Source: a virus
Lineage: Duplodnaviria > Heunggongvirae > Uroviricota > Caudoviricetes
Direction: 5' to 3' (one strand)
Length of the DNA: 24,455 bases
IMG/VR virus record: IMGVR_UViG_2778261278_000008
The notes below the pieces were generated by a model. It had not been told where the DNA came from. It did not search any database and saw only the letters and a list, made by a program, of their open reading frames with translations. The translations under genes and the position numbers were made by a program. This document shows positions 1-14,844 of the stretch, piece after piece. Numbering within the stretch: position 1 is the first letter of the stretch; each line of letters starts with the position of its first letter.

Positions 1-1002
1 TTACCCTCTATTATCAAAAGGGTTCAATTCAACAGCAGCCTCTAAATGACCTGGAGCAAAATGCGCATAACGCATAGTCATTTTTATATCGCTATGCCCC
101 AGTATTTTTTGCAACACAAGAATATTTCCGCCCCGCATCATAAAATGACTGGCAAACGTGTGACGTAGCACATGAGTTAATTGCCCATCAGGAAGCTCGA
201 TCTTCGCTCTCTTAATTGCAGCGTCAAAAGCCTCATAACATGGTGAAAATAGCGCTCCTCGTTTTTTAGGAAGCATAGCCTGCAATTGAGGTGAAATAGG
301 TACAGTGCGGTTCTTCTTTCCTTTAGTTTTAACAAATGTGATTCGACCGGGCAGTACTTGAGATTGCTTTAATCCTTCTGCTTCACTCCACCGAGCACCA
401 GTCGCAAGCCCAATACGGACAACAACCCCCAAATCTTTATTCCGTGACTCATCACACGAAATCAGAAGGCGTTCAATCTCATCTACATACAGAAACGCCA
501 GTTCCTTTTCTTCCTCACGAAACTTGCGAATACCAGTCAGAGGGTTTTCACCAGACCACTCCCCAAGGCGCTTCAGTTCGGCAAAAACAGCATGTAGATA
601 TGACTGCTCGCGATTAACGGTTGCTTCACTAAGTTTTTTCTTCCCCTTGGGATTCCATTCTCCTGATAGCCTTCTTTCCCGATAAGTAGCAAACATATTT
701 TTGTCAAACTGAGAAGCAAATGGATCTCCCAGCCTAGAACAAATCGCCTCAAGTTTGACTTTGCGCTCTGCACCAGAGGACAAGGTTTTACCGTACATCT
801 CAAACCAACGAGCAATCAACTCAGAAAGACGAGGACCAGAACCATCTTGAAACTCGTCTCCAACTCTACTATTCATTAAACGGCGCTCATAAGAGAGCGC
901 CTCACTTTTTGTCGCAAACTGTTTACGAATGCGTTTTCCCGATGCCCCGTAGGGATAACATTCGCAAAGCCATTTACCTGATGGAATCTTACGAACCGAC
1001 AT
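1..1002 (-). CDS. int: Tyrosine recombinase, P2-type phage integrase
   Basis: 333-aa ORF. C-terminal catalytic region HVLRHTFASHFMMRGG...LGHSDIKMTMRYAHF is typical of tyrosine recombinases; N-terminal GKRIRKQFATKSEA and the C-terminus resemble P2 Int as recalled. Lies downstream of the repressor on the same strand, as in P2. Confidence 0.92.
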   Translation of the reverse strand: MSVRKIPSGKWLCECYPYGASGKRIRKQFATKSEALSYERRLMNSRVGDEFQDGSGPRLSELIARWFEMYGKTLSSGAERKVKLEAICSRLGDPFASQFDKNMFATYRERRLSGEWNPKGKKKLSEATVNREQSYLHAVFAELKRLGEWSGENPLTGIRKFREEEKELAFLYVDEIERLLISCDESRNKDLGVVVRIGLATGARWSEAEGLKQSQVLPGRITFVKTKGKKNRTVPISPQLQAMLPKKRGALFSPCYEAFDAAIKRAKIELPDGQLTHVLRHTFASHFMMRGGNILVLQKILGHSDIKMTMRYAHFAPGHLEAAVELNPFDNRG

Positions 1003-6273: not shown

Positions 6274-9096
6274 ATGACGGCAGAGTACATCAGGGACTGG
6301 CAACAACCGCGCCACGCAGTGGGGCGTGAAGGAACGGGGATCCCCGCTCCTGAATCCGCGCTTTCCTCCTGGCTGGATGCCTACCGGGTAGAGAACGAGC
6401 GCCGCCAGGAAATGGCTGATGCGGCGTTCTCCGCAACGCCGCTGGGCAACCTGATTAATAAAAGCCTGGACGCACAGGAAAAACAGGACAAAACCATCAC
6501 ACTGGCAGGAGACGCCAGAAAACAGGCACGCGGCGCGGTGGATGAAGCCATGGCCTCGCTGCGCCTGCTGCCGTCCTATCTGCGCGATCCGCTTATTCGC
6601 CACCTCTCCTTCCTGCGCAAAAAACAGGAAGCCGATCGCAGGAAAGGCAAAAAGAGCTGGCAGGCGGAACGCTATGCATGCGGAACCCTGCGCAAAATAT
6701 TCGAACGTCTGGATCGCACTGACGGACGCTGGCTGACACCGGGTTATCGCTCCCTTGCCGGACGCGAACGCCTGGATGATTTGCTTTACCTGCCGCAGCT
6801 CAACAAACGCCAGATACAGACGCTGGCCACCATGACGGCGGCGATGTTCAGCAGCACCTTCGAAAAACTCTGCGATGGCTTTGGCGCGACTAATGGTGAA
6901 CTAACCATGGATGTAACGCTGAAGGCGTATCAGATGCTGGCCCGCATGGCGTTACACCTGCACGCCATGCCTCCACATTATGACGCACTGACAACAGACA
7001 AAGACCGGAGGAACGAACCGGACACGGAGCTGCTGCCGGGCGCAATCCTTCGCCTGACCTGTGCGGAATGGTGGAAACGCAAACTGTGGCTGGTACGTTG
7101 CGAGTGGAGAGAAGAACAACTCCGCGCCGCCTGTCTGGTTTCCAGAAAAACATCGCCCTATCTGAGCCAGGACGCGTTAAGCGAGTTTCGCGCACAGCGC
7201 GAGAAAACACGCGATTTCCTGAAAAGTTTCATGCTGGAAAACGAAGACGGGTTCACGATTGATCTCGAGACAGTGTATTACGCGGGAGTAAGTAACCCGG
7301 TTCACCGTAAGGCAGAAATGATGGCCACCATGAAGGGACTGGAACTTCTGGCCGAAGCCCGTGGCGACAGAGCGGTGTTTCTGACTGTCACCTGCCCGTC
7401 AAAATACCACGCAACAACGGAGAACGGTCATCCGAACCCCAAATGGAACGGGGCCACCATGCGCGACTCCAGCGATTACCTGGTTAACACGTTTTTTGCG
7501 GCGGTCCGCAAAAAACTGAACCGCGACGGCCTGCGCTGGTATGGCATCCGCACGGTGGAGCCTCACCATGACGGCACCGTGCACTGGCATATGATGGTCT
7601 TTGCTCATCCGGAAGAAATCGACAGCATCGTGGCCATCACCCGCGATATTGCCATTCAGGAAGACCGCCACGAGCTGGGCAATGATATTACTCCGCGCTT
7701 TAAGGTGGAGTATGTCGACGGCTCAAAAGGCACACCAACCAGCTATATCGCGACCTACATCGGAAAAAACCTGGACAGCCGCGCCATGGATGGCATCGAC
7801 CCGAAAACGGGCAAACCACGCGTTGACTACGAAACCGGAAAATCAATGGCCGAGAGCGTGGAGCGCGCCATCGGTTGGGCACGCCTTCACCGGGTCCGCC
7901 AGTTCCAGTTCTTTGGCATCCCCTCCCGTCAGGTGTGGCGTGAACTCCGCCGCCTTGCCAGCCAGATGGCACGCAACCCGGAAGGCCCGCAACGGCTGAA
8001 GGATGACGCAATGGATGCGGTACTCGCTGCCGCTGATGCCGGATGTTTTGCCACCTACATAGAGAAACAGGGCGGCGTACTTGTTCCACGCAAAGACTAC
8101 CTGATTCGCACCGCCTACGACCTCGCCGATGAGCTGAACGATTACGGCGAACAGAGCGTACAGATTTACGGGATCTGGTCACCACTCATCGGGGAATCCT
8201 CCCGTGTATGCACGCATCCGGATAACTGGAAGCTGGTAAGACGCAAACCGGAAGCGGAAGACAGCGCCCGCGAAAATGGTTTTGACCTTCAGGGCGGCCC
8301 TGCCGCCCCTTGGACTCGTGGCAATAACTGTCCCCGTGTACAGGAAACAGACAACAACGGGACAGAACAGCCGGAAGAACGGCCAGCACCGTGGCCGCAG
8401 CTCCCTGACGGCGTTGAAGTGAACGAATGGATGCATTCACTGAAACGGCACGAACGCCGGGCGCTGATGCGTTCGCTGCGTGACAAACAGGCAAAAAACA
8501 GCAGTGATGAAATGCAGAGCTGGACACAGAGCCGCAAACAGCAGCGGCCTTTGCCTGATAACCACGAATTACTCGCTAAAGAATGGCGGGAGTCTGCTGA
8601 ATCTCTCGGCCTGCATATCGGTGAACAGCAGATGCAGCACCTGTTACGGGGCGGCAGTCTGTACGTTGACGGCAGCATCATTGCACCGCAGGGATTTGAA
8701 ATTGTACGCAAACCGGATACCCGACCGGACAGCCGGATCACGCAGCTCTGGCAGCGCCTGAGCCGTAACCACGGCGTAAGCAGTACGGAGATCCGCCATA
8801 ACCCGGTCGCCAGCTATCTGGAACAGCTGGGGGCATCAGACCCCGAAGCCGCCGCACGCCTGGCATCCACACTTCAGCAGGACCAGAACACCATGAAAAC
8901 ACCCGTTACCGTGCTTTCTGACATGCTGCGCGCCATCCGCGACGCAGAGCACGCACAGAGAATCAGTGAAACTACTGAACGCGCCCGCCGCAAAGCAGAC
9001 CTGCTGCGGGGTGGCCTGACCAGTGGAAACAAAAAACAGACAGAAACGGGATTCACAAATCCCGTAAATGAGCAAAAAACGCGCCGCGATATATGA
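6274..9096 (+). CDS. A: Rolling-circle replication initiator endonuclease (P2 gpA family, HUH superfamily)
   Basis: 940-aa ORF with HUH motif (GTVHWHMMVF) and a Y-x3-Y catalytic tyrosine pair (SYIATYIGKNLD) downstream, as in P2/186 A proteins. Located after the early small ORFs as in P2. Confidence 0.9.
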   Translation: MTAEYIRDWQQPRHAVGREGTGIPAPESALSSWLDAYRVENERRQEMADAAFSATPLGNLINKSLDAQEKQDKTITLAGDARKQARGAVDEAMASLRLLPSYLRDPLIRHLSFLRKKQEADRRKGKKSWQAERYACGTLRKIFERLDRTDGRWLTPGYRSLAGRERLDDLLYLPQLNKRQIQTLATMTAAMFSSTFEKLCDGFGATNGELTMDVTLKAYQMLARMALHLHAMPPHYDALTTDKDRRNEPDTELLPGAILRLTCAEWWKRKLWLVRCEWREEQLRAACLVSRKTSPYLSQDALSEFRAQREKTRDFLKSFMLENEDGFTIDLETVYYAGVSNPVHRKAEMMATMKGLELLAEARGDRAVFLTVTCPSKYHATTENGHPNPKWNGATMRDSSDYLVNTFFAAVRKKLNRDGLRWYGIRTVEPHHDGTVHWHMMVFAHPEEIDSIVAITRDIAIQEDRHELGNDITPRFKVEYVDGSKGTPTSYIATYIGKNLDSRAMDGIDPKTGKPRVDYETGKSMAESVERAIGWARLHRVRQFQFFGIPSRQVWRELRRLASQMARNPEGPQRLKDDAMDAVLAAADAGCFATYIEKQGGVLVPRKDYLIRTAYDLADELNDYGEQSVQIYGIWSPLIGESSRVCTHPDNWKLVRRKPEAEDSARENGFDLQGGPAAPWTRGNNCPRVQETDNNGTEQPEERPAPWPQLPDGVEVNEWMHSLKRHERRALMRSLRDKQAKNSSDEMQSWTQSRKQQRPLPDNHELLAKEWRESAESLGLHIGEQQMQHLLRGGSLYVDGSIIAPQGFEIVRKPDTRPDSRITQLWQRLSRNHGVSSTEIRHNPVASYLEQLGASDPEAAARLASTLQQDQNTMKTPVTVLSDMLRAIRDAEHAQRISETTERARRKADLLRGGLTSGNKKQTETGFTNPVNEQKTRRDI

Positions 9097-9138
9097 AGCG
9101 CGCATAAAACAGGCAAAAACGGGATTTCAGAATCCCGT
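9046..9138. repeat. Two copies of a 20-bp palindrome ACGGGAT-N6-ATCCCGT with conserved AAA flanks, 73 bp apart; candidate centromere/operator for the downstream ParMR-like genes
   Basis: Copy 1 at 9046-9065 lies inside the 3' end of gene A; copy 2 at 9119-9138 lies about 35 bp upstream of the parM-like start. The arms are exact reverse complements. Confidence 0.6.
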
Positions 9139-9172
9139 AAACGATTAATTAATCAACATAAGGAAAAGCGAC

Positions 9173-10132
9173 ATGAAAATTTGTATCGATGACGGCTCCA
9201 CCAACATCAAGCTGGCATGGACTGAGAACGGCGAACGCCGCAACGCCATCAGCCCGAACAGCTTCAAGTCGGAATGGTCTGCGCCGTTCGGTGGCACGCA
9301 GCCCGCGAACTACATGCTTGATGGCGTGCGCTATGGTTTTGATCCGGTCAGTGATCGCTTTGTCCAGACGACCGACACGCAATACCAGTACAGCGATGTG
9401 AATGTCATTGCCATTCATCACGCGCTGGTCAAATCAGGCATCACACCACAGGAAGTGGATGTGGTTGTCACCCTGCCACTGAGCGAATATTTCGACACAA
9501 ACGCACAGCCGGACATGGCCAACATCAACCGCAAAAAAGCAAACGTCATGCGCCCGGTGGCGTGCCAGAACGGAAAAGCATTCACTATCCGTAACGTACG
9601 AGTTATGCCTGAATCCATTCCGGCTGGTTTTAAAGCACTGGCTGACATGAGTCCGTTTGAATCCCTGCTGATTGTGGATTTAGGCGGAACCACGCTGGAT
9701 GTGGCAAAGGTTCAGGGACAACTGGCAGGTATCAGCCAGGTGTTTTGCGATCCACACGTAGGCGTTTCCCTGATGGCCGATGCCGTACTGTCGGTGATGG
9801 CCACTAACGGTATGCGTACCAGTCACCACATCGCCAATACCATTATCGAACATCGCCATGATGAAGCCTGGCTGCGCCAGCACATCCACAATGACGCGCA
9901 TTACGCCAGCCTGATGGCGGTTATTCGTGAAAAGGAAGAAACACTGAAACAACGCGTGATCCGCGCGCTGGCGGTTTTTTCGGGTTACGGGCGGGTGATG
10001 GTTGTCGGTGGCGGGGCGGAGATTGTGGCACCCGCTATCCGCGAAGCCTGCGGAGTTAATGCGACTTTCATCGCGGACGGGGTGCCACAGTTTGCTCTGG
10101 TTAATGGGCTGTACGCAATGGACAAGGAGTAA
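9173..10132 (+). CDS. parM: Actin-like segregation ATPase, ParM/StbA family
   Basis: 319-aa ORF with actin-fold motifs: phosphate-1 ICIDDGSTNIKL, phosphate-2 LIVDLGGTTLD, adenosine VVGGGAEIV. N-terminus closely resembles R1 plasmid ParM as recalled (MLVFIDDGSTNIKLQW...ISPNSFK..EW). RBS AAGGAAAA. Confidence 0.85.
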   Translation: MKICIDDGSTNIKLAWTENGERRNAISPNSFKSEWSAPFGGTQPANYMLDGVRYGFDPVSDRFVQTTDTQYQYSDVNVIAIHHALVKSGITPQEVDVVVTLPLSEYFDTNAQPDMANINRKKANVMRPVACQNGKAFTIRNVRVMPESIPAGFKALADMSPFESLLIVDLGGTTLDVAKVQGQLAGISQVFCDPHVGVSLMADAVLSVMATNGMRTSHHIANTIIEHRHDEAWLRQHIHNDAHYASLMAVIREKEETLKQRVIRALAVFSGYGRVMVVGGGAEIVAPAIREACGVNATFIADGVPQFALVNGLYAMDKE

Positions 10133-10136
10133 ACCA

Positions 10137-10448
10137 ATGACGACACCAACCAGACGGATAAGTTTCTATCTGAAGCCCGCCGCCGTCAAGAACGAAGGCG
10201 AAGCATGCGCCTGGCTGGACAGCCTTACACCAGAAGCCCGCAAAAGTGGTCAACGCGTGGCTTTTCTGGCCGGGCTGGCACTACTGAAAATGAATCCGGC
10301 AGAGGCTTACCGACTGGCTGCATGGGCTGACGATGAAGCGTTATCCCTGACGCAAACCAGGACAGAACGCCTCCTGTCACAGCCAGTACCAACCGCACAG
10401 ATAACCAGTCAGATGGCCGGAAATATCAGGGCGTTATTTCCTGAATAA
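10137..10448 (+). CDS. parR: ParR/StbB-like ribbon-helix-helix centromere-binding protein
   Basis: 103-aa ORF starting 5 nt after the parM stop, with AAGGAG RBS. RRISFYLKP...LDSLTPEARKSGQRVAFLAGLAL...NIRALFPE parallels R1 ParR (RRTIAFKLNP...LDSIPQGERSRLNRAALTAGLAL...ILRSLFPKE) as recalled. The ORF-track start at 10002 is an upstream in-frame extension overlapping parM. Confidence 0.75.
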   Translation: MTTPTRRISFYLKPAAVKNEGEACAWLDSLTPEARKSGQRVAFLAGLALLKMNPAEAYRLAAWADDEALSLTQTRTERLLSQPVPTAQITSQMAGNIRALFPE

Positions 10449-10455
10449 CACAACG

Positions 10456-10475
10456 TCAGGGCGAGTTCGCCCTGA
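10456..10475. other. Perfect 20-bp palindrome TCAGGGCGA-GT-TCGCCCTGA immediately after the parR-like stop
   Basis: 9-bp arms are exact reverse complements. No flanking U-tract, so it is either a weak terminator/stabilising hairpin or a protein-binding site. Confidence 0.4.
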
Positions 10476-10511
10476 TCTCCATCTCAGAACATAAACAAGA
10501 AGAGCGACTTA

Positions 10512-10895
10512 ATGAGCAAAATCAACTATCAGGCATTACGTGAACGTTATTCACCTGCACCAGTACCAAAATGCCCTATTTGCGGCGAAGAAATGTCAAT
10601 TCAGCGAATATCTGGAGCACAGGTTGTTTATGGCTGCTCCGGTTATGGTGATGATGGAGATTTCAAAATTGGTCGAACTCTTGCCGACGAACATTATGAA
10701 AAATCACGCGTAACAGTGTTGGATGTCGGGGATCCTGAAGTATTGGCGCTACTTGATTGGCTGGAAACCAAAGACAACCGAATCGCTGAACTGGAAAAAA
10801 TCGCCACTGACTATGCACTTAAATTCCAGAAAGCACAGGACGCATTAAAGTACGCCGCTTTGCTGCATAGCAGGACAGCGCAGCTACAAGACTAA
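10512..10895 (+). CDS. Hypothetical protein with CPxCG zinc-ribbon-like motif and C-terminal coiled-coil-like segment
   Basis: 127-aa ORF; KCPICGEEMS...YGCSGYG (3 Cys) and heptad-like C-terminus (IAELEKIATDYALKFQKAQDALKYAALL). Same strand as parMR, 63 bp downstream. Confidence 0.55.
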   Translation: MSKINYQALRERYSPAPVPKCPICGEEMSIQRISGAQVVYGCSGYGDDGDFKIGRTLADEHYEKSRVTVLDVGDPEVLALLDWLETKDNRIAELEKIATDYALKFQKAQDALKYAALLHSRTAQLQD

Positions 10896-10985
10896 CTTAA
10901 AGCGGAAGATTAATACATGGTGGGTCGGGGTAATTTGTTTTTATCCCGACAAATAAACAAAAAAGTGGACTATCTCTGTAGTATC

Positions 10986-11516
10986 TTATTCAGCATCGTC
11001 TCGTGCAGTCTGTGCATACGTCACAACAACGCCCAATGCATTAGTTTTCTTTTCAACATAGATAATATTGTCATATTCATAGTTACCATACGGATAGCAA
11101 ATAAGAATATTTTTATGCAGATCGGGATCATCAACAAACGCTCCGGAACAGCTTCTTGAACTACCGGATGTATACTCATACGGTGCAACATATGATGATG
11201 TTACTCCTGGTAAAAAATAAGTCACCATCATAAGAGGGATAATCAGGAATATCCCTGTAAGAATGCAAGAGCCAGCATAAACCTTCAGGTATTCCGACAG
11301 TCCTTTCCAGCCACTTTGCTTCACTACCCCCCTCTTCACCAGAAACAAGGAGAAGAAAAAGGACATACCCATACTACACAAGATGTAATAATTGGATATA
11401 CGCGAATTAAGATATGTAATCCTGTAGATATCTGCCCTCCACCAGTAAAAGAGGAAAATAATCCCTAGCACTGAAACAGTCATGCAAATCAAATAAGGAT
11501 ATGAATCTTTCTTCAT
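10986..11516 (-). CDS. AT-rich cargo gene encoding a 3-TM membrane protein with a C-terminal extracytoplasmic-type domain
   Basis: 176-aa ORF on the opposite strand to its neighbours. Three hydrophobic helices (YLICMTVSVLGIIFLFYWW; YYILCSMGMSFFFSLFLV; CILTGIFLIIPLMMVTYFL) followed by a Cys/Tyr-rich about 70-aa tail. Visibly lower GC than the flanking phage genes (by eye, not computed). Confidence 0.6.
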   Translation of the reverse strand: MKKDSYPYLICMTVSVLGIIFLFYWWRADIYRITYLNSRISNYYILCSMGMSFFFSLFLVKRGVVKQSGWKGLSEYLKVYAGSCILTGIFLIIPLMMVTYFLPGVTSSYVAPYEYTSGSSRSCSGAFVDDPDLHKNILICYPYGNYEYDNIIYVEKKTNALGVVVTYAQTARDDAE

Positions 11517-12046
11517 GTCTTGCGCTCATTAAAATTTCCCTGCTACGAACAAATTTACCATCCGTTTTTTGCGCAGAAAACAGCACGATGCACACTGCAC
11601 GATAGTGCACAAATTTGCACAATTTTTTTGAACGACTTTTTACCCTTCCGGCCCGCATGGCGGCTGGATCCGTCAAGGATCCGTGCGTGCACAAAAAAAC
11701 GCGTTTTTTCTGCGCGCAGGTGACGGGGGAACAGCCCGCGTTTCAGGGGGTAAATAGCATCCCCTGAACGATGTCGCAGCGACACAACAGAATGGCTGTA
11801 TTTCTCACGCTGAGCGTGAAGAATACGTGAGGGATTCTGATTTGATGGGGTGAAAGGTAAGGCCGTCAAAATCGCACTGAGGCGGCGAGAACATGCAGTC
11901 AACGCGGTGGGATTGCGTAAGAGTCTGACCGCCGATGATGGCAATAAGCAGAAAAGCGTCGTGAAATTATCTGACTGATACAGGAGCTGGAGAGTCGGGG
12001 CATAAATTTTTTATGCCCCGGCGAAGCAGCAGACAAGCGAAGCGCG
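11517..12046. other. 530-bp noncoding region between the cargo slot and portal gene Q; expected location of the cos/packaging site by synteny
   Basis: No convincing ORF. Contains TGCAC direct repeats (11589-11620), GGATCCGT x2 (11666-11684), palindrome A6-CGCG-T6 (11694-11709), inverted repeat TTCAGGGG/CCCCTGAA (11742-11768) and a 10-bp-stem hairpin (11997-12019). Cos itself not identified. Confidence 0.4.
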
Positions 12047-13093
12047 TCAGGATGTGGGCTGGGTGTCTAACAGTGCGTAAGGGTTAAAGCGGATCACCTC
12101 TTCGCCAAGCCAGTCATTGATGTGCTTCATGGCCTCCATGACTGGCATCAGCTCGTTAATTGCGTAAACCCGCGCGGCCTTCTCCACATCACCAAACGCA
12201 CTTTTTTCGCCCGGCATCGCCCCCATCAGTTGCGGCGGAACGCGGTGTGCAGCCAGCACATCATCACGGGATGCCGCCTTAACATTCATGAACTCATCTT
12301 TTGCGGTGATCTGCTGGAACGGCAAAATTTGCACCCCCTCTTTGCCCCCGTTGGGCGCATGAATGAGCACGTTTTTAAACGCACCACCACCACGCGCACC
12401 CTGTAGCGTTTCTTTCAGGGAGTCCATGCTTTCGCGGTTTACCTGCGCTGCACCGATGTAGATGATGCACCCGGCGTGGGATCCGTTGTCGTAATACAGT
12501 TTTCTGAACATGTCCGCCGAATGAGACAGGCTGGCCGAGAGTAATGCGCCGAGATATTCCGGCATGCCGTAGATTTCCTGGTTAATGTCAGGATTCATCA
12601 GGTGGCACACTTTGCCTGGGCGAAACTGAAACGCGTCCTTGCCATCCTGCACATACCACCATGATTCAAGATCGCTTCCGCGTCGTATGTATTTCGCCAG
12701 GGCGTGCCGTAATTTAAGCGGTTCGCCGAGCATATTGCTTCGAAGCTCAAGGAATGCGTTACCGAACACAAACCAGTCCAGCGCCAGCGCCGAGAAATCC
12801 TGCCGGGAAAGCAGCGGGTGCGGAATATAGCAACCGAGCAATACATTGCGCTTAAAGTAAAGCGCAGACTGATGCCAGGACGTTTGCCGGGCAGCTCTTG
12901 CCAGACCGTACCAGTCCACCGGGGTTTCATACCACCGCCCGTTATCAGCACAGTACATATTGTCCAGCAGGTCATGCCCGGTCAGGCGATAAGGACCATC
13001 AAATGTGAATGCACTGAGCGATGATTCTTTCCTGAGCGCATCAGCGAGATCAATGCGTGAACTCATGCGCACTTTTTTATTTTTTCTGCTCAT
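12047..13093 (-). CDS. Q: Phage portal protein (P2 gpQ family)
   Basis: 348-aa ORF, length and position match P2 Q (about 344 aa as recalled). Start overlaps the terminase stop by 1 nt. Confidence 0.9.
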   Translation of the reverse strand: MSRKNKKVRMSSRIDLADALRKESSLSAFTFDGPYRLTGHDLLDNMYCADNGRWYETPVDWYGLARAARQTSWHQSALYFKRNVLLGCYIPHPLLSRQDFSALALDWFVFGNAFLELRSNMLGEPLKLRHALAKYIRRGSDLESWWYVQDGKDAFQFRPGKVCHLMNPDINQEIYGMPEYLGALLSASLSHSADMFRKLYYDNGSHAGCIIYIGAAQVNRESMDSLKETLQGARGGGAFKNVLIHAPNGGKEGVQILPFQQITAKDEFMNVKAASRDDVLAAHRVPPQLMGAMPGEKSAFGDVEKAARVYAINELMPVMEAMKHINDWLGEEVIRFNPYALLDTQPTS

Positions 13094-14844
13094 CAGAACT
13101 CCATAACCGTGAAACGCTCGTTTTCTCCTTCGCCGCCAATCGGTTCGTTAATGACAGCAAGCATGGTCGCCCACGCAAGGTCGCCGTGGCTGATCCCCCT
13201 CGCGCGGTCCGTTTCGTAAGTGATAAAGCCGCCCGGTGTTTTCACCTTACGCACGGCGTTAAAGGCCGCGACCAGTTCGCGTTCGGCGCGATCGTATTCC
13301 CACCGCCCGGCACGCATTATTTGCAGCATTTTCAGTACCAGCGACCGTTTTGATGACAGCGTGAAGGTGTACGGAATAGCAGCAGGGAAAAACCGTTTCA
13401 CTATCTGATAAACAGCCTCCCCGTTCCCGCCCGTCACATCAATGCCGATGTGTTCCACGTTGTAGCGACACGTGAACTCTTCAATGACTCTGGCCTGTTC
13501 TTCAAACTCCAGCCCCTGAACGCGTCGCGTCTCCACCGTTCGAAAACGGCCACCAGGAACAGCCGGAGGAACCACCACGGACACAGCGCCGCTGTCGCCG
13601 TTGCCACTGCTGCCGTTTGCGTCATACCCAATCCATACCGGACGATTCCCCATCGGGCGGGGAGCAAAAGGTTTCCAGTCTTTCCAGTCGTCGTATCCGT
13701 CAACACCGCAGCCAATCAGGATATTCAGGTTAAATGCCGATTCCCCTTCGCGGACAAACTCACACATATAGAGATTGAGGAACTCGTCTTCGGTGTTTTC
13801 ATCACGAATTTCGTCGATATCGGTGTGTTTCCAGCCGTGTTTAACCACATCTTCCAGCGTGACAATTTGCCGCCACGTCCGGTCAGGGCAGATAAGCCCG
13901 TTATGCAGCGTTTTCCAGTCCACAGAAAAACGCTGGCGTTTATGCGAGGCCTTTTTCTCGTTCCAGCGGTCGCCGTTCCAGTAGGCGTATGCCTCGTGCG
14001 TTTCGGTGGATGGCGTGGAGAAGTAGGTGCGCCGCAGTCCGCTGAGGGTTGCCATAGCGCCAGCCACCTTGCGCAGTTCAGCAAAGCGACTGACCCAGAA
14101 AAATTCATCAAAATAAAAATTGCCCGTATAGGACTGTGCCGACGCAGCAGAAGTGCCGAGAAAATGCAGCTCTGCGCCGTTGGAGAGGATGATTTTATCG
14201 CCCCCTTTCAGCTCCACATCAACTTCAGCCGCGGCCTTCTGAATAATGCTTTTAAACTGGAACGCCTGACGACGCGACGCAGACAAAAAAATCTGGTTAC
14301 GCTGGTAAGGTTGCGCCACATCGTCACGCAGCGCCATCAGCAGCGCTTCCTGTGCAAAATACCAGGTCGCCCCAATCTGTCGGGATTTCAGGATCATCCT
14401 GTTACGTATCCCGGCTTCCCTGCAAAGGGTCAGGGAGTCAAACCAGCCCCGCTGATGCCACTCCAGCCTGCTGATGATTTTTTCCCGCAGTGCGGCAATC
14501 TGTTCCGGCGTGAAATGATTTTTGAGTTTTTTCGCCCGGCCTTTCTTTCCTGTGACCGTCGCATCCGGCTGGCCATCATGCAGTTTTTTAAGCTGCCGGG
14601 TCAGCAGGTCTATTTCCTTAAAGTCACCACCTGTTTTATTCTGTTTTTCAGTAAGCTGGATGAGGCGCGCATCGATGGACTGCGTGACACGCTGCACGGG
14701 TGGCGTTTCATCCCACTGGTCACGTTTTTTCCACGCATAAATCGTGTTCGGGTTTATTCCCATCAGACGTGATATTTCTGCGGGCGGATAACCCTGCCAG
14801 TAAAGTTGCCGCGCACGCTGGCGCACAAAAGCGTCCTGAATCAT
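13093..14844 (-). CDS. P: Terminase large (ATPase) subunit (P2 gpP family)
   Basis: 583-aa ORF; N-terminal RQRARQLYWQGYPPAEISRLMGINPNTIYAW resembles P2 P. Divergent from O as in P2. Confidence 0.9.
   Translation of the reverse strand: MIQDAFVRQRARQLYWQGYPPAEISRLMGINPNTIYAWKKRDQWDETPPVQRVTQSIDARLIQLTEKQNKTGGDFKEIDLLTRQLKKLHDGQPDATVTGKKGRAKKLKNHFTPEQIAALREKIISRLEWHQRGWFDSLTLCREAGIRNRMILKSRQIGATWYFAQEALLMALRDDVAQPYQRNQIFLSASRRQAFQFKSIIQKAAAEVDVELKGGDKIILSNGAELHFLGTSAASAQSYTGNFYFDEFFWVSRFAELRKVAGAMATLSGLRRTYFSTPSTETHEAYAYWNGDRWNEKKASHKRQRFSVDWKTLHNGLICPDRTWRQIVTLEDVVKHGWKHTDIDEIRDENTEDEFLNLYMCEFVREGESAFNLNILIGCGVDGYDDWKDWKPFAPRPMGNRPVWIGYDANGSSGNGDSGAVSVVVPPAVPGGRFRTVETRRVQGLEFEEQARVIEEFTCRYNVEHIGIDVTGGNGEAVYQIVKRFFPAAIPYTFTLSSKRSLVLKMLQIMRAGRWEYDRAERELVAAFNAVRKVKTPGGFITYETDRARGISHGDLAWATMLAVINEPIGGEGENERFTVMEF

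Follow-up and report, generated by a model that had tools for sequence, protein, structure and literature searches.

A putative ParMRC-type segregation cassette between the gpA and portal genes of P88-like phages of the P2 family

Results

A stretch of 24,455 nucleotides from the IMG/VR virus record IMGVR_UViG_2778261278_000008 (the window, meaning the whole stretch analysed) was identified as a P88-like temperate phage of the P2 family (genus Xuanwuvirus, Peduoviridae). Positions 9030-10448, adjoining the 3' end of the gene encoding the replication endonuclease gpA, very probably constitute a functional and complete segregation cassette of the ParMRC type (type II, actin-type), as judged by sequence. 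The cassette is comprised of two upstream repeats, regarded as the candidate centromere, followed by genes encoding an actin-fold ATPase (ParM) and an adaptor (ParR). The specific role proposed, at slightly less than even odds, is partition of the extrachromosomal phage circle, which would aid inheritance and lysogenization. The explanation as a whole, cassette and role together, was assigned a compromise probability of about 0.6. The features of the cassette region are the following.

9030-9071, plus strand: candidate centromere repeat 1, a 42-nucleotide (nt) direct repeat with the palindrome ACGGGATTCACAAATCCCGT at 9046-9065, within the last gpA codons
9103-9144, plus strand: candidate centromere repeat 2, a 42-nt direct repeat with the palindrome ACGGGATTTCAGAATCCCGT at 9119-9138
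9143-9154, plus strand: perfect palindrome GATTAATTAATC of 12 bp, flanked by repeat 2 and the ribosome-binding site of parM
9173-10132, plus strand: parM, actin-fold partition ATPase of 319 amino acids, ATG start, with Pfam, PDB and PHROG matches
10137-10448, plus strand: parR, ParR/StbB-family adaptor of 103 amino acids (PF10784, 2.1e-24; phrog_2515, 1e-57)
10456-10475: 9-2-9 GC-rich hairpin TCAGGGCGA-GT-TCGCCCTGA, just 3' of the parR stop and not present in all relatives

Properties of ParM

Residues 1-157 of ParM matched the StbA_N family (PF06406, E = 1.6e-81) and residues 159-316 matched the ParM C-terminal family (PF21523, E = 6.2e-69), both far above the curated cut-offs. The sequence of the R1 ParM crystal structure (1mwk) aligned end to end over residues 2-316 with E = 1.2e-92 (phmmer), and among the PHROGs the match was to phrog_691, 'partition protein' (1.5e-89). 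The identity with R1-type plasmid ParM was 47%. Pairwise alignments with R1 ParM revealed that IDDGSTNIK, DLGGTTLD, VMPESIPAG and VVGGGAE are all kept; the motifs for nucleotide binding and hydrolysis (phosphate 1 DDGST, phosphate 2 DLGGTT, adenosine GGGA and catalytic PES) are intact. The protein scored 19.1 bits with the NCBIfam ParM equivalog NF010498 (PRK13917), below its cut-off of 417 bits; that model describes a different ParM subfamily, and PGAP still names the protein ParM.

The cassette was compared across 86 related loci plus the window (87 total). All 87 had an intact parM gene (97-99% amino-acid identity), while the identity of gpA ranged from 72% to 98% and that of the portal protein was only 30% in some loci. 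The mean pairwise ratio of nonsynonymous to synonymous substitution rates (dN/dS) was 0.066 for parM versus 0.13 for gpA. These results indicate that parM is under strong purifying selection, stronger than that on gpA. The GC content of parMR (0.545) is like that of the phage core and differs from the 0.446 of the cargo genes that follow at 10449-12046.

Properties of ParR

The parR gene begins 4 nt past the parM stop, and its Shine-Dalgarno sequence (AAGGAG) lies inside the 3' end of parM. The deduced protein matched PF10784 (Plasmid_stab_B) with E = 2.1e-24, the family that also contains R1-type ParR (5.9e-30). It is basic, with an isoelectric point (pI) of 8.98 that rises to 9.7 for residues 1-63. 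The protein is tripartite, with a basic and conserved N-terminal domain (residues 1-63), a hypervariable linker (residues 64-95) and a conserved C-terminal tail, for which the dN/dS values were 0.12, 0.55 and 0.03-0.15 respectively. The last eight residues follow the conserved pattern N-I-x-x-[LFM]-F-P-x. The tail aligns with the C-terminus of R1 ParR (...KKNAMKLIN), and two residues, N96 and L100, do not vary among the phage and plasmid ParRs aligned. The R1 tail is presumably the ParM-bound peptide of PDB 4A62. When a profile of the phage ParR was compared with PDB sequences, the only solved structure matched was the RHH2 (ribbon-helix-helix) fold of pB171 ParR (2JD3), with residues 8-73 aligned to 10-74 at a weak E = 0.008. 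The AlphaFold2 model of the monomer, of low confidence (pLDDT 58), predicted an unstructured N-terminus, three helices (20-29, 32-52 and 54-61) and, past a disordered linker, a C-terminal helix (87-100).

The sequence-only reading of this DNA had proposed a partition module from the actin-fold nucleotide-binding motifs of the open reading frame (ORF) at 9173-10132 and from the small basic ORF just downstream of it. The profile searches against ParM/StbA and ParR/StbB families that it recommended were significant for both proteins, and the ATPase motifs were undegraded on alignment.

At least two allele classes of ParR were observed, 52% identical to each other, represented by the window (10137-10448) and by L003:5098-5412, the latter from a remnant prophage of E. 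coli O157 that we take to be CP-933T. Both classes have identical residues 1-18 and the C-terminal NIxxLFPE in common, and the allele not found in the window was present in about half of the E. coli matches. No association was found between variants of the upstream palindromes and the two ParR alleles, which is consistent with the identity of the N-terminal 18 residues.

The upstream repeats

The palindromic repeats noticed upstream of parM in the sequence-only reading were confirmed as perfect 8-4-8 palindromes of 20 nt with the form ACGGGATT-N4-AATCCCGT. The 42-nt repeats that contain them are 81% identical and 73 bp apart. A search of the 24.5-kb window for the palindrome with up to 3 mismatches returned only these two occurrences (0.10 expected; two were obtained in 1 of 100 shuffles). 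At the same tolerance, related loci totalling 739 kb yielded 171 matches, of which 167 lay no more than 140 nt upstream of parM. The homology of two E. coli prophages having the same gpA and no parMR (L089 and L090) stops at approximately 8996-9010 of the window, to the left of repeat 1, and no palindrome was detected in either of them even at 3 mismatches. Among 41 distinct sequences from the P88 clade the GGGA/TCCC core was nearly invariant.

The arrangement extends to distant relatives. Two sites of the GGGA...TCCC type, 72 nt apart, are located directly upstream of parM in P2-like prophages of Hafnia and Plesiomonas, and the ParR N-terminus TRR[IV]SFYL is common to these and the P88 type. 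In Serratia and Enterobacter a different element of 19-20 nt is present as an inverted pair, alongside the ParR N-terminus NRKISFYL. Since the repeats are lost together with parMR, are almost confined to the region upstream of parM and keep their arrangement in distant relatives, they appear to be tied to parMR and not to gpA or the replication origin. The Plesiomonas sites keep the direct repeat GCGGGACAAC with self-complementarity of only 3-4 bp, which argues for binding of a protein at these sites. ParR would be expected to bind the two palindromes of the window.

Two variant loci were observed. The IMG/VR locus L032 (3860-4000) has one repeat only, a 73-bp deletion between the 42-nt repeats having removed palindrome 1; the deletion alters the C-terminus of gpA and leaves parMR intact. 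The Hafnia prophage (L094:5453-5956) contains an extra ORF of 167 amino acids and unknown function between gpA and parM, and its GGGA...TCCC-type sites are within or just past the 3' end of that ORF.

Expression signals

A scan of 8800-11000 for sigma-70-like promoters returned none at threshold. The best candidate under relaxed conditions, TTCAGA-16-ATTAAT at 9126-9153, has 8 of 12 consensus positions, overlaps GATTAATTAATC and is not conserved. No plus-strand terminator was detected between gpA and parM. Because the cassette is located directly behind gpA with neither an intervening terminator nor a convincing promoter of its own, parMR would be co-expressed with the early replication operon; expression of this kind suggests action on the gpA-replicated extrachromosomal circle and not in the quiescent prophage. 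The supplements of an O157 lysogen proteome and of a ciprofloxacin transcriptome list a few CP-933T proteins and contain no entries for ParM or ParR.

The 12-bp palindrome GATTAATTAATC is replaced by GGTTAATTAACC, a symmetric double change, in 4 distinct related sequences, and a one-sided intermediate was found in 2. It may be the operator for some protein or part of a weak -10 element or promoter. At the other end of the cassette, homology to many related prophages ceases at query position 1409, equivalent to 10448 of the window and before the hairpin at 10456-10475; the hairpin may be where the transcript or the cassette ends.

Location in the phage genome and downstream genes

The location that the sequence-only reading had assigned, in the interval from gene A to portal in a P2-family phage that encodes an integrase, is borne out by the features below. 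Head, lysis and tail genes of the P2 type are found beyond the portal and terminase genes.

1-1002, minus strand: integrase
6274-9096, upstream of parM: gpA, replication endonuclease of 940 amino acids (PF05840, E = 1e-130)
10512-10895, same strand as parR and 63 nt downstream of it: Ead/Ea22-like protein with an N-terminal CxxC...C motif (PF13935, 3e-29)
10986-11516, minus strand: ORF of 176 amino acids (phrog_1416, unknown function) with no Pfam or PADLOC match
12047-14844, minus strand, downstream of the cassette: portal and terminase, the portal itself at 12047-13093

The order gpA, parM, parR, 1-3.5 kb of variable genes and portal was found in all 86 related loci and in the window. The nucleotide identity of the cassette region with phages P88, P884B11, phiSM, 520873 and others was 94-98%, and a partition gene is named among the cargo of phiSM (PMC6456863). 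The variable cargo of the window extends from 10449 to 12046. The Ead/Ea22-like ORF, which the sequence-only reading had considered a zinc-ribbon protein and possible third component of the module, belongs to this low-GC cargo and was present in only approximately 17 of the 86 related loci, and that suggestion is not upheld. PADLOC returned no match for ParM, ParR or the neighbouring ORFs.

In L089 (3886-6446) and L090 (3821-6597), other cargo directly follows gpA in place of parMR. It encodes a DNA adenine methylase (Dam) and an AAA ATPase in one and an AAA ATPase and an S8 peptidase in the other, and is probably of the defence type. The gpA of both prophages has an alternative C-terminal end.

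Relatives and origin

A scan of genome contigs with the single ParM sequence returned three near-identical loci only, and the wider diversity of ParM was obtained from a large protein database combined with contig look-ups. The four next-nearest ParMs examined for context were 54-62% identical to that of the window and derived from Hafnia, Plesiomonas, Serratia and Enterobacter, the first two at 62%. All four are encoded in the gpA-parM-parR-cargo-portal slot of P2-like prophages in which the length of gpA differs. The identity of plasmid ParMs in PLSDB was at most 52%. A tblastn search of PLSDB with ParR returned no plasmid match at E<1e-3 except for copies within P88-like prophage sequence. 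In the phage collection, relatives of ParM were found only in the P88 group and in the phage-plasmid D6 (48%). A rough neighbour-joining tree, without bootstrap support, separated the phage ParMs, which possibly form two lineages, from those of plasmids. On sequence grounds the cassette appears to be an old phage-resident branch of type II systems and not a recent capture from an R1-like plasmid.

The same prophage module was also observed in a 226-kb contig labelled Vagococcus sp. (NZ_JBQPOM010000071.1), with 97% identity for ParM and 99% for the portal; the assembly is probably contaminated or mislabelled.

Distribution and previous reports

Of 5426 complete E. coli genomes, 1307 (about a quarter) contained the cassette at >90% nucleotide identity and 1442 contained the matching type of gpA, so that roughly nine of ten phages with this type of replication carry it. 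These results establish the cassette as a near-core feature of P88-like (Xuanwuvirus) phages. The proteins are named in RefSeq by PGAP as 'plasmid segregation protein ParM' and 'plasmid partitioning/stability family protein', and phrog_691 and phrog_2515 are partition-protein families in PHROGs. Rousset et al. (2022) reported that about a fourth of P2-like phages have a putative partition system, possibly permitting plasmid maintenance (PMC9122126); the remark is a single sentence, without anatomy, selection analysis or experiment. Thus, both the feature and the idea of plasmid maintenance are already published and the cassette is ordinary for this phage group, in disagreement with the sequence-only reading, in which it was regarded as unusual for an integrative P2-like phage. 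The present analysis adds the purifying selection, the tripartite structure of ParR, the inheritance of the repeats together with parMR and the conservation of the slot across genera.

Discussion

Proposed role and alternatives

The mechanism proposed is drawn by homology with the ParMRC systems of R1 and pB171. Dimers of ParR would attach to the two sites of dyad symmetry by means of their putative N-terminal ribbon-helix-helix domain, and the ends of ATP-ParM filaments would be captured by the conserved C-terminal tail of ParR. Insertional growth of the filament would then drive two circular copies of the phage genome apart, so that each daughter cell would receive phage circles during the period that starts with infection or excision and ends with integration or lysis. 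Lysogenization would be expected to become more efficient and loss of the element less frequent. Episomal maintenance or stabilization of the excised genome, as suggested in the sequence-only reading, would both be plausible.

Several points weigh against this explanation. Rolling-circle replication of the gpA type yields many circles in the lytic cycle, for which active partition is not obviously needed. The cassette occupied 1453 chromosomal places versus 2 plasmid places in the complete E. coli genomes and is therefore almost always chromosomal, the outcome of the survey of integrated and circular copies that the sequence-only reading had advised. Approximately 5-10% of phages with this type of gpA are without the cassette, which is thus dispensable. 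The candidate centromere has two sites versus ten iterons in R1. Neither palindrome has undergone compensatory changes within the clade, and 18 of the 41 distinct sequences show asymmetry at one arm position of palindrome 1. The literature searched yielded no experimental study of the cassette.

It is conceivable that ParM and ParR position DNA during the lytic cycle, moving or spacing the replicating circles for replication or packaging in the manner of AlpC/AlpA, and do not serve to secure inheritance when the cell divides. The location right behind gpA with no detectable promoter or terminator suggests early-operon expression, and stronger selection on parM than on gpA is as expected if phage yield is affected. 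The AlpAC system of prophage CGP3 provides a precedent, since there an actin-like protein and a DNA-binding adaptor are needed for efficient replication of viral DNA (PMC4446434, PMC5539076). However, the proteins of the window are close homologues of plasmid segregation ParM and ParR and not of AlpC, and otherwise similar prophages exist without parMR; a lytic role is considered unlikely. Still less probable is a facultative plasmid lysogeny in which the cassette and a hok/gef gene allow a long-term, low-copy plasmid prophage in place of integration. It accords with the plasmid maintenance proposed by Rousset et al. (PMC9122126), with the presence of hok/gef in P88 as well, and with a circular 34,461-bp 'plasmid' record that comprises an entire P88-like genome with int, C, cox, gpA, parMR and hok. 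The start of that record, however, is exactly the end of the chromosomal prophage, as expected for an excised or induced circle that was assembled separately, the other short 'plasmid' match is a linear degraded contig, and no theta-type plasmid replicon was seen. Lysogens of phiSM and P88 are integrated, phiSM at pdxB (PMC6456863). A phage-plasmid is extrachromosomal in its lysogens, and what was found for the P88-like group is the strong chromosomal excess given above together with one ambiguous circular record. A related and rather improbable version is a dual lifestyle, in which ParMRC and hok/gef would together enable the circle, either ahead of integration or following excision, to persist and segregate over generations as a low-copy plasmid. 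Most improbable is a function in conflict, whereby ParR and ParM of the prophage would destabilize incoming plasmids or superinfecting P88-like phages through partition incompatibility. The cassette is located at the A-Q hotspot reported for defence systems (PMC9122126), and in relatives without parMR the same position is filled by AAA ATPase, methylase or peptidase systems. Against such a function, variable cargo persists downstream of parR, so that the cassette has not replaced the hotspot, and the homology to known or candidate defence proteins by which defence systems of the P2 hotspot are recognized was not found by PADLOC. Moreover, the absence of plasmid relatives of ParR at E<1e-3 (tblastn, PLSDB) makes cross-reaction with plasmid centromeres unlikely, and the O157 lysogen proteome and transcriptome supplements are devoid of ParM and ParR entries.

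A further alternative concerns the repeats, which could act as RNA hairpins or terminators or belong to the gpA origin, with the cassette either lacking parC or using another site. Both palindromes are terminator-like by score on the minus strand, and all changes in palindrome 2 are compatible with G-U pairing. On the other hand, no gene reads into the palindromes on the minus strand, neither has a T-run behind it on the plus strand, and the frequent asymmetry in palindrome 1 breaks the pairing. The Plesiomonas equivalents keep the direct repeat with hardly any self-complementarity. The counts of compensatory changes neither prove nor exclude an RNA hairpin, since no both-sided changes occurred and the core almost never varies. 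The replication origins of P2 and 186 sit within gene A. However, the palindromes are missing from the gpA-positive, parMR-negative relatives L089 and L090, in which an origin is still required. Conservation across P2-like genera within the 3' half of gpA is limited to 8012-8339 (68-79% nucleotide identity with Fels-2, SopE-phi, RE2010, SEN8 and many Klebsiella P2-like phages), flanking gpA sequence being not alignable. The palindromes are thus disfavoured as replication origin, for which the stretch at 8012-8339 is the better candidate as a cis-acting element, and the alternative for the repeats as a whole is improbable.

The circular record mentioned above (L002, NZ_CP148288.1) is from an E. 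coli isolate of a cat and also contains the structural genes; it represents either an excised circle or a true episome. A survey of attachment-site junctions, in which the joined ends of the record were compared with the complete E. coli genomes, showed that chromosomal copies match exactly to the first base of the record; the record thus begins at the prophage end, and the survey does not separate a true plasmid from an excised circle. A 26.7-kb Shigella boydii 'plasmid' was rejected as evidence for an episome on finding that it is a linear, unplaced contig riddled with IS1, and larger 'plasmid' matches of 0.23-1.4 Mb were set aside as prophage copies in large replicons or mis-assigned pieces of chromosome. 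The hok/gef-family toxin gene is located near ogr, outside the window, at L091:7929-8069 (P88) and L002:1291-1431. P88-like phages thus hold homologues of both classical stability loci of R1, parMRC and hok/sok.

As a discovery the cassette carries little weight, having been annotated in RefSeq, placed in PHROG families and remarked on in print. Its importance is that a plasmid-type segregation machine is under strong purifying selection in a phage group that is nearly always integrated and present in about a quarter of E. coli genomes. Knowledge of the role, whether to boost lysogenization, to prevent loss after abortive excision or to organize lytic DNA, would clarify how integrative elements manage a transient extrachromosomal phase. 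A centromere of two dyads would be a compact natural variant of parC, with bearing on how few ParR sites suffice for capture of ParM. If the dual lifestyle were true, facultative plasmid lysogeny would occur in one of the commonest groups of E. coli prophages.

Comparison with known systems

The parMRC locus of R1/NR1 (parA/stb) has the same order of cis-acting site, parM and parR, and its ParM is 47% identical with the motifs kept. The R1/NR1 ParR belongs to the same Pfam family, PF10784, with an alignable C-terminal tail, although it is only approximately 27% identical to the phage ParR. In the R1-type comparison plasmid, parC is made up of direct iterons of 11 bp (2 x 5) that surround a TTGACA promoter, whereas the phage has two 20-bp dyads 73 bp apart, and the strong promoter within parC of R1 has no clear counterpart in the phage cassette, for which an autoregulated promoter was not recognized. 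Thus, the R1-type architecture proposed in the sequence-only reading holds for the gene order and the proteins, and only loosely for the centromere, with its two dyads and no convincing sigma-70 promoter. Unlike R1/NR1, the host replicon is an integrating P2-family phage. The par1 system of pB171 is related through the ParR RHH2 structure (2JD3) matched by the phage ParR profile at E = 0.008, a distant relationship. The centromeres of pB171 are arrays of short direct repeats.

Partition systems are also borne by the phage-plasmids P1 (parABS), N15 (sopAB) and D6 (a ParM of the StbA type, 48% identical). These are obligate plasmid prophages with no chromosomal integration, whereas P88-like phages encode an integrase and are found integrated. 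The AlpC/AlpA/alpS system of the Corynebacterium glutamicum prophage CGP3 likewise combines an actin-like filament and a DNA-binding adaptor acting on excised viral DNA of an integrated prophage, but AlpC belongs to another family of actin-like proteins and serves replication and transport of viral DNA, not partition (PMC4446434, PMC5539076). The best functional analogue is srpMRC of SXT/R391, likewise a type II locus on a normally integrated element, although only a distant relationship links SrpM and SrpR to ParM and ParR, and SXT/R391 is an integrative and conjugative element and not a phage. The srpMRC locus is expressed only on activation and stabilizes the excised replicating circle, a function demonstrated experimentally (PMC4489591).

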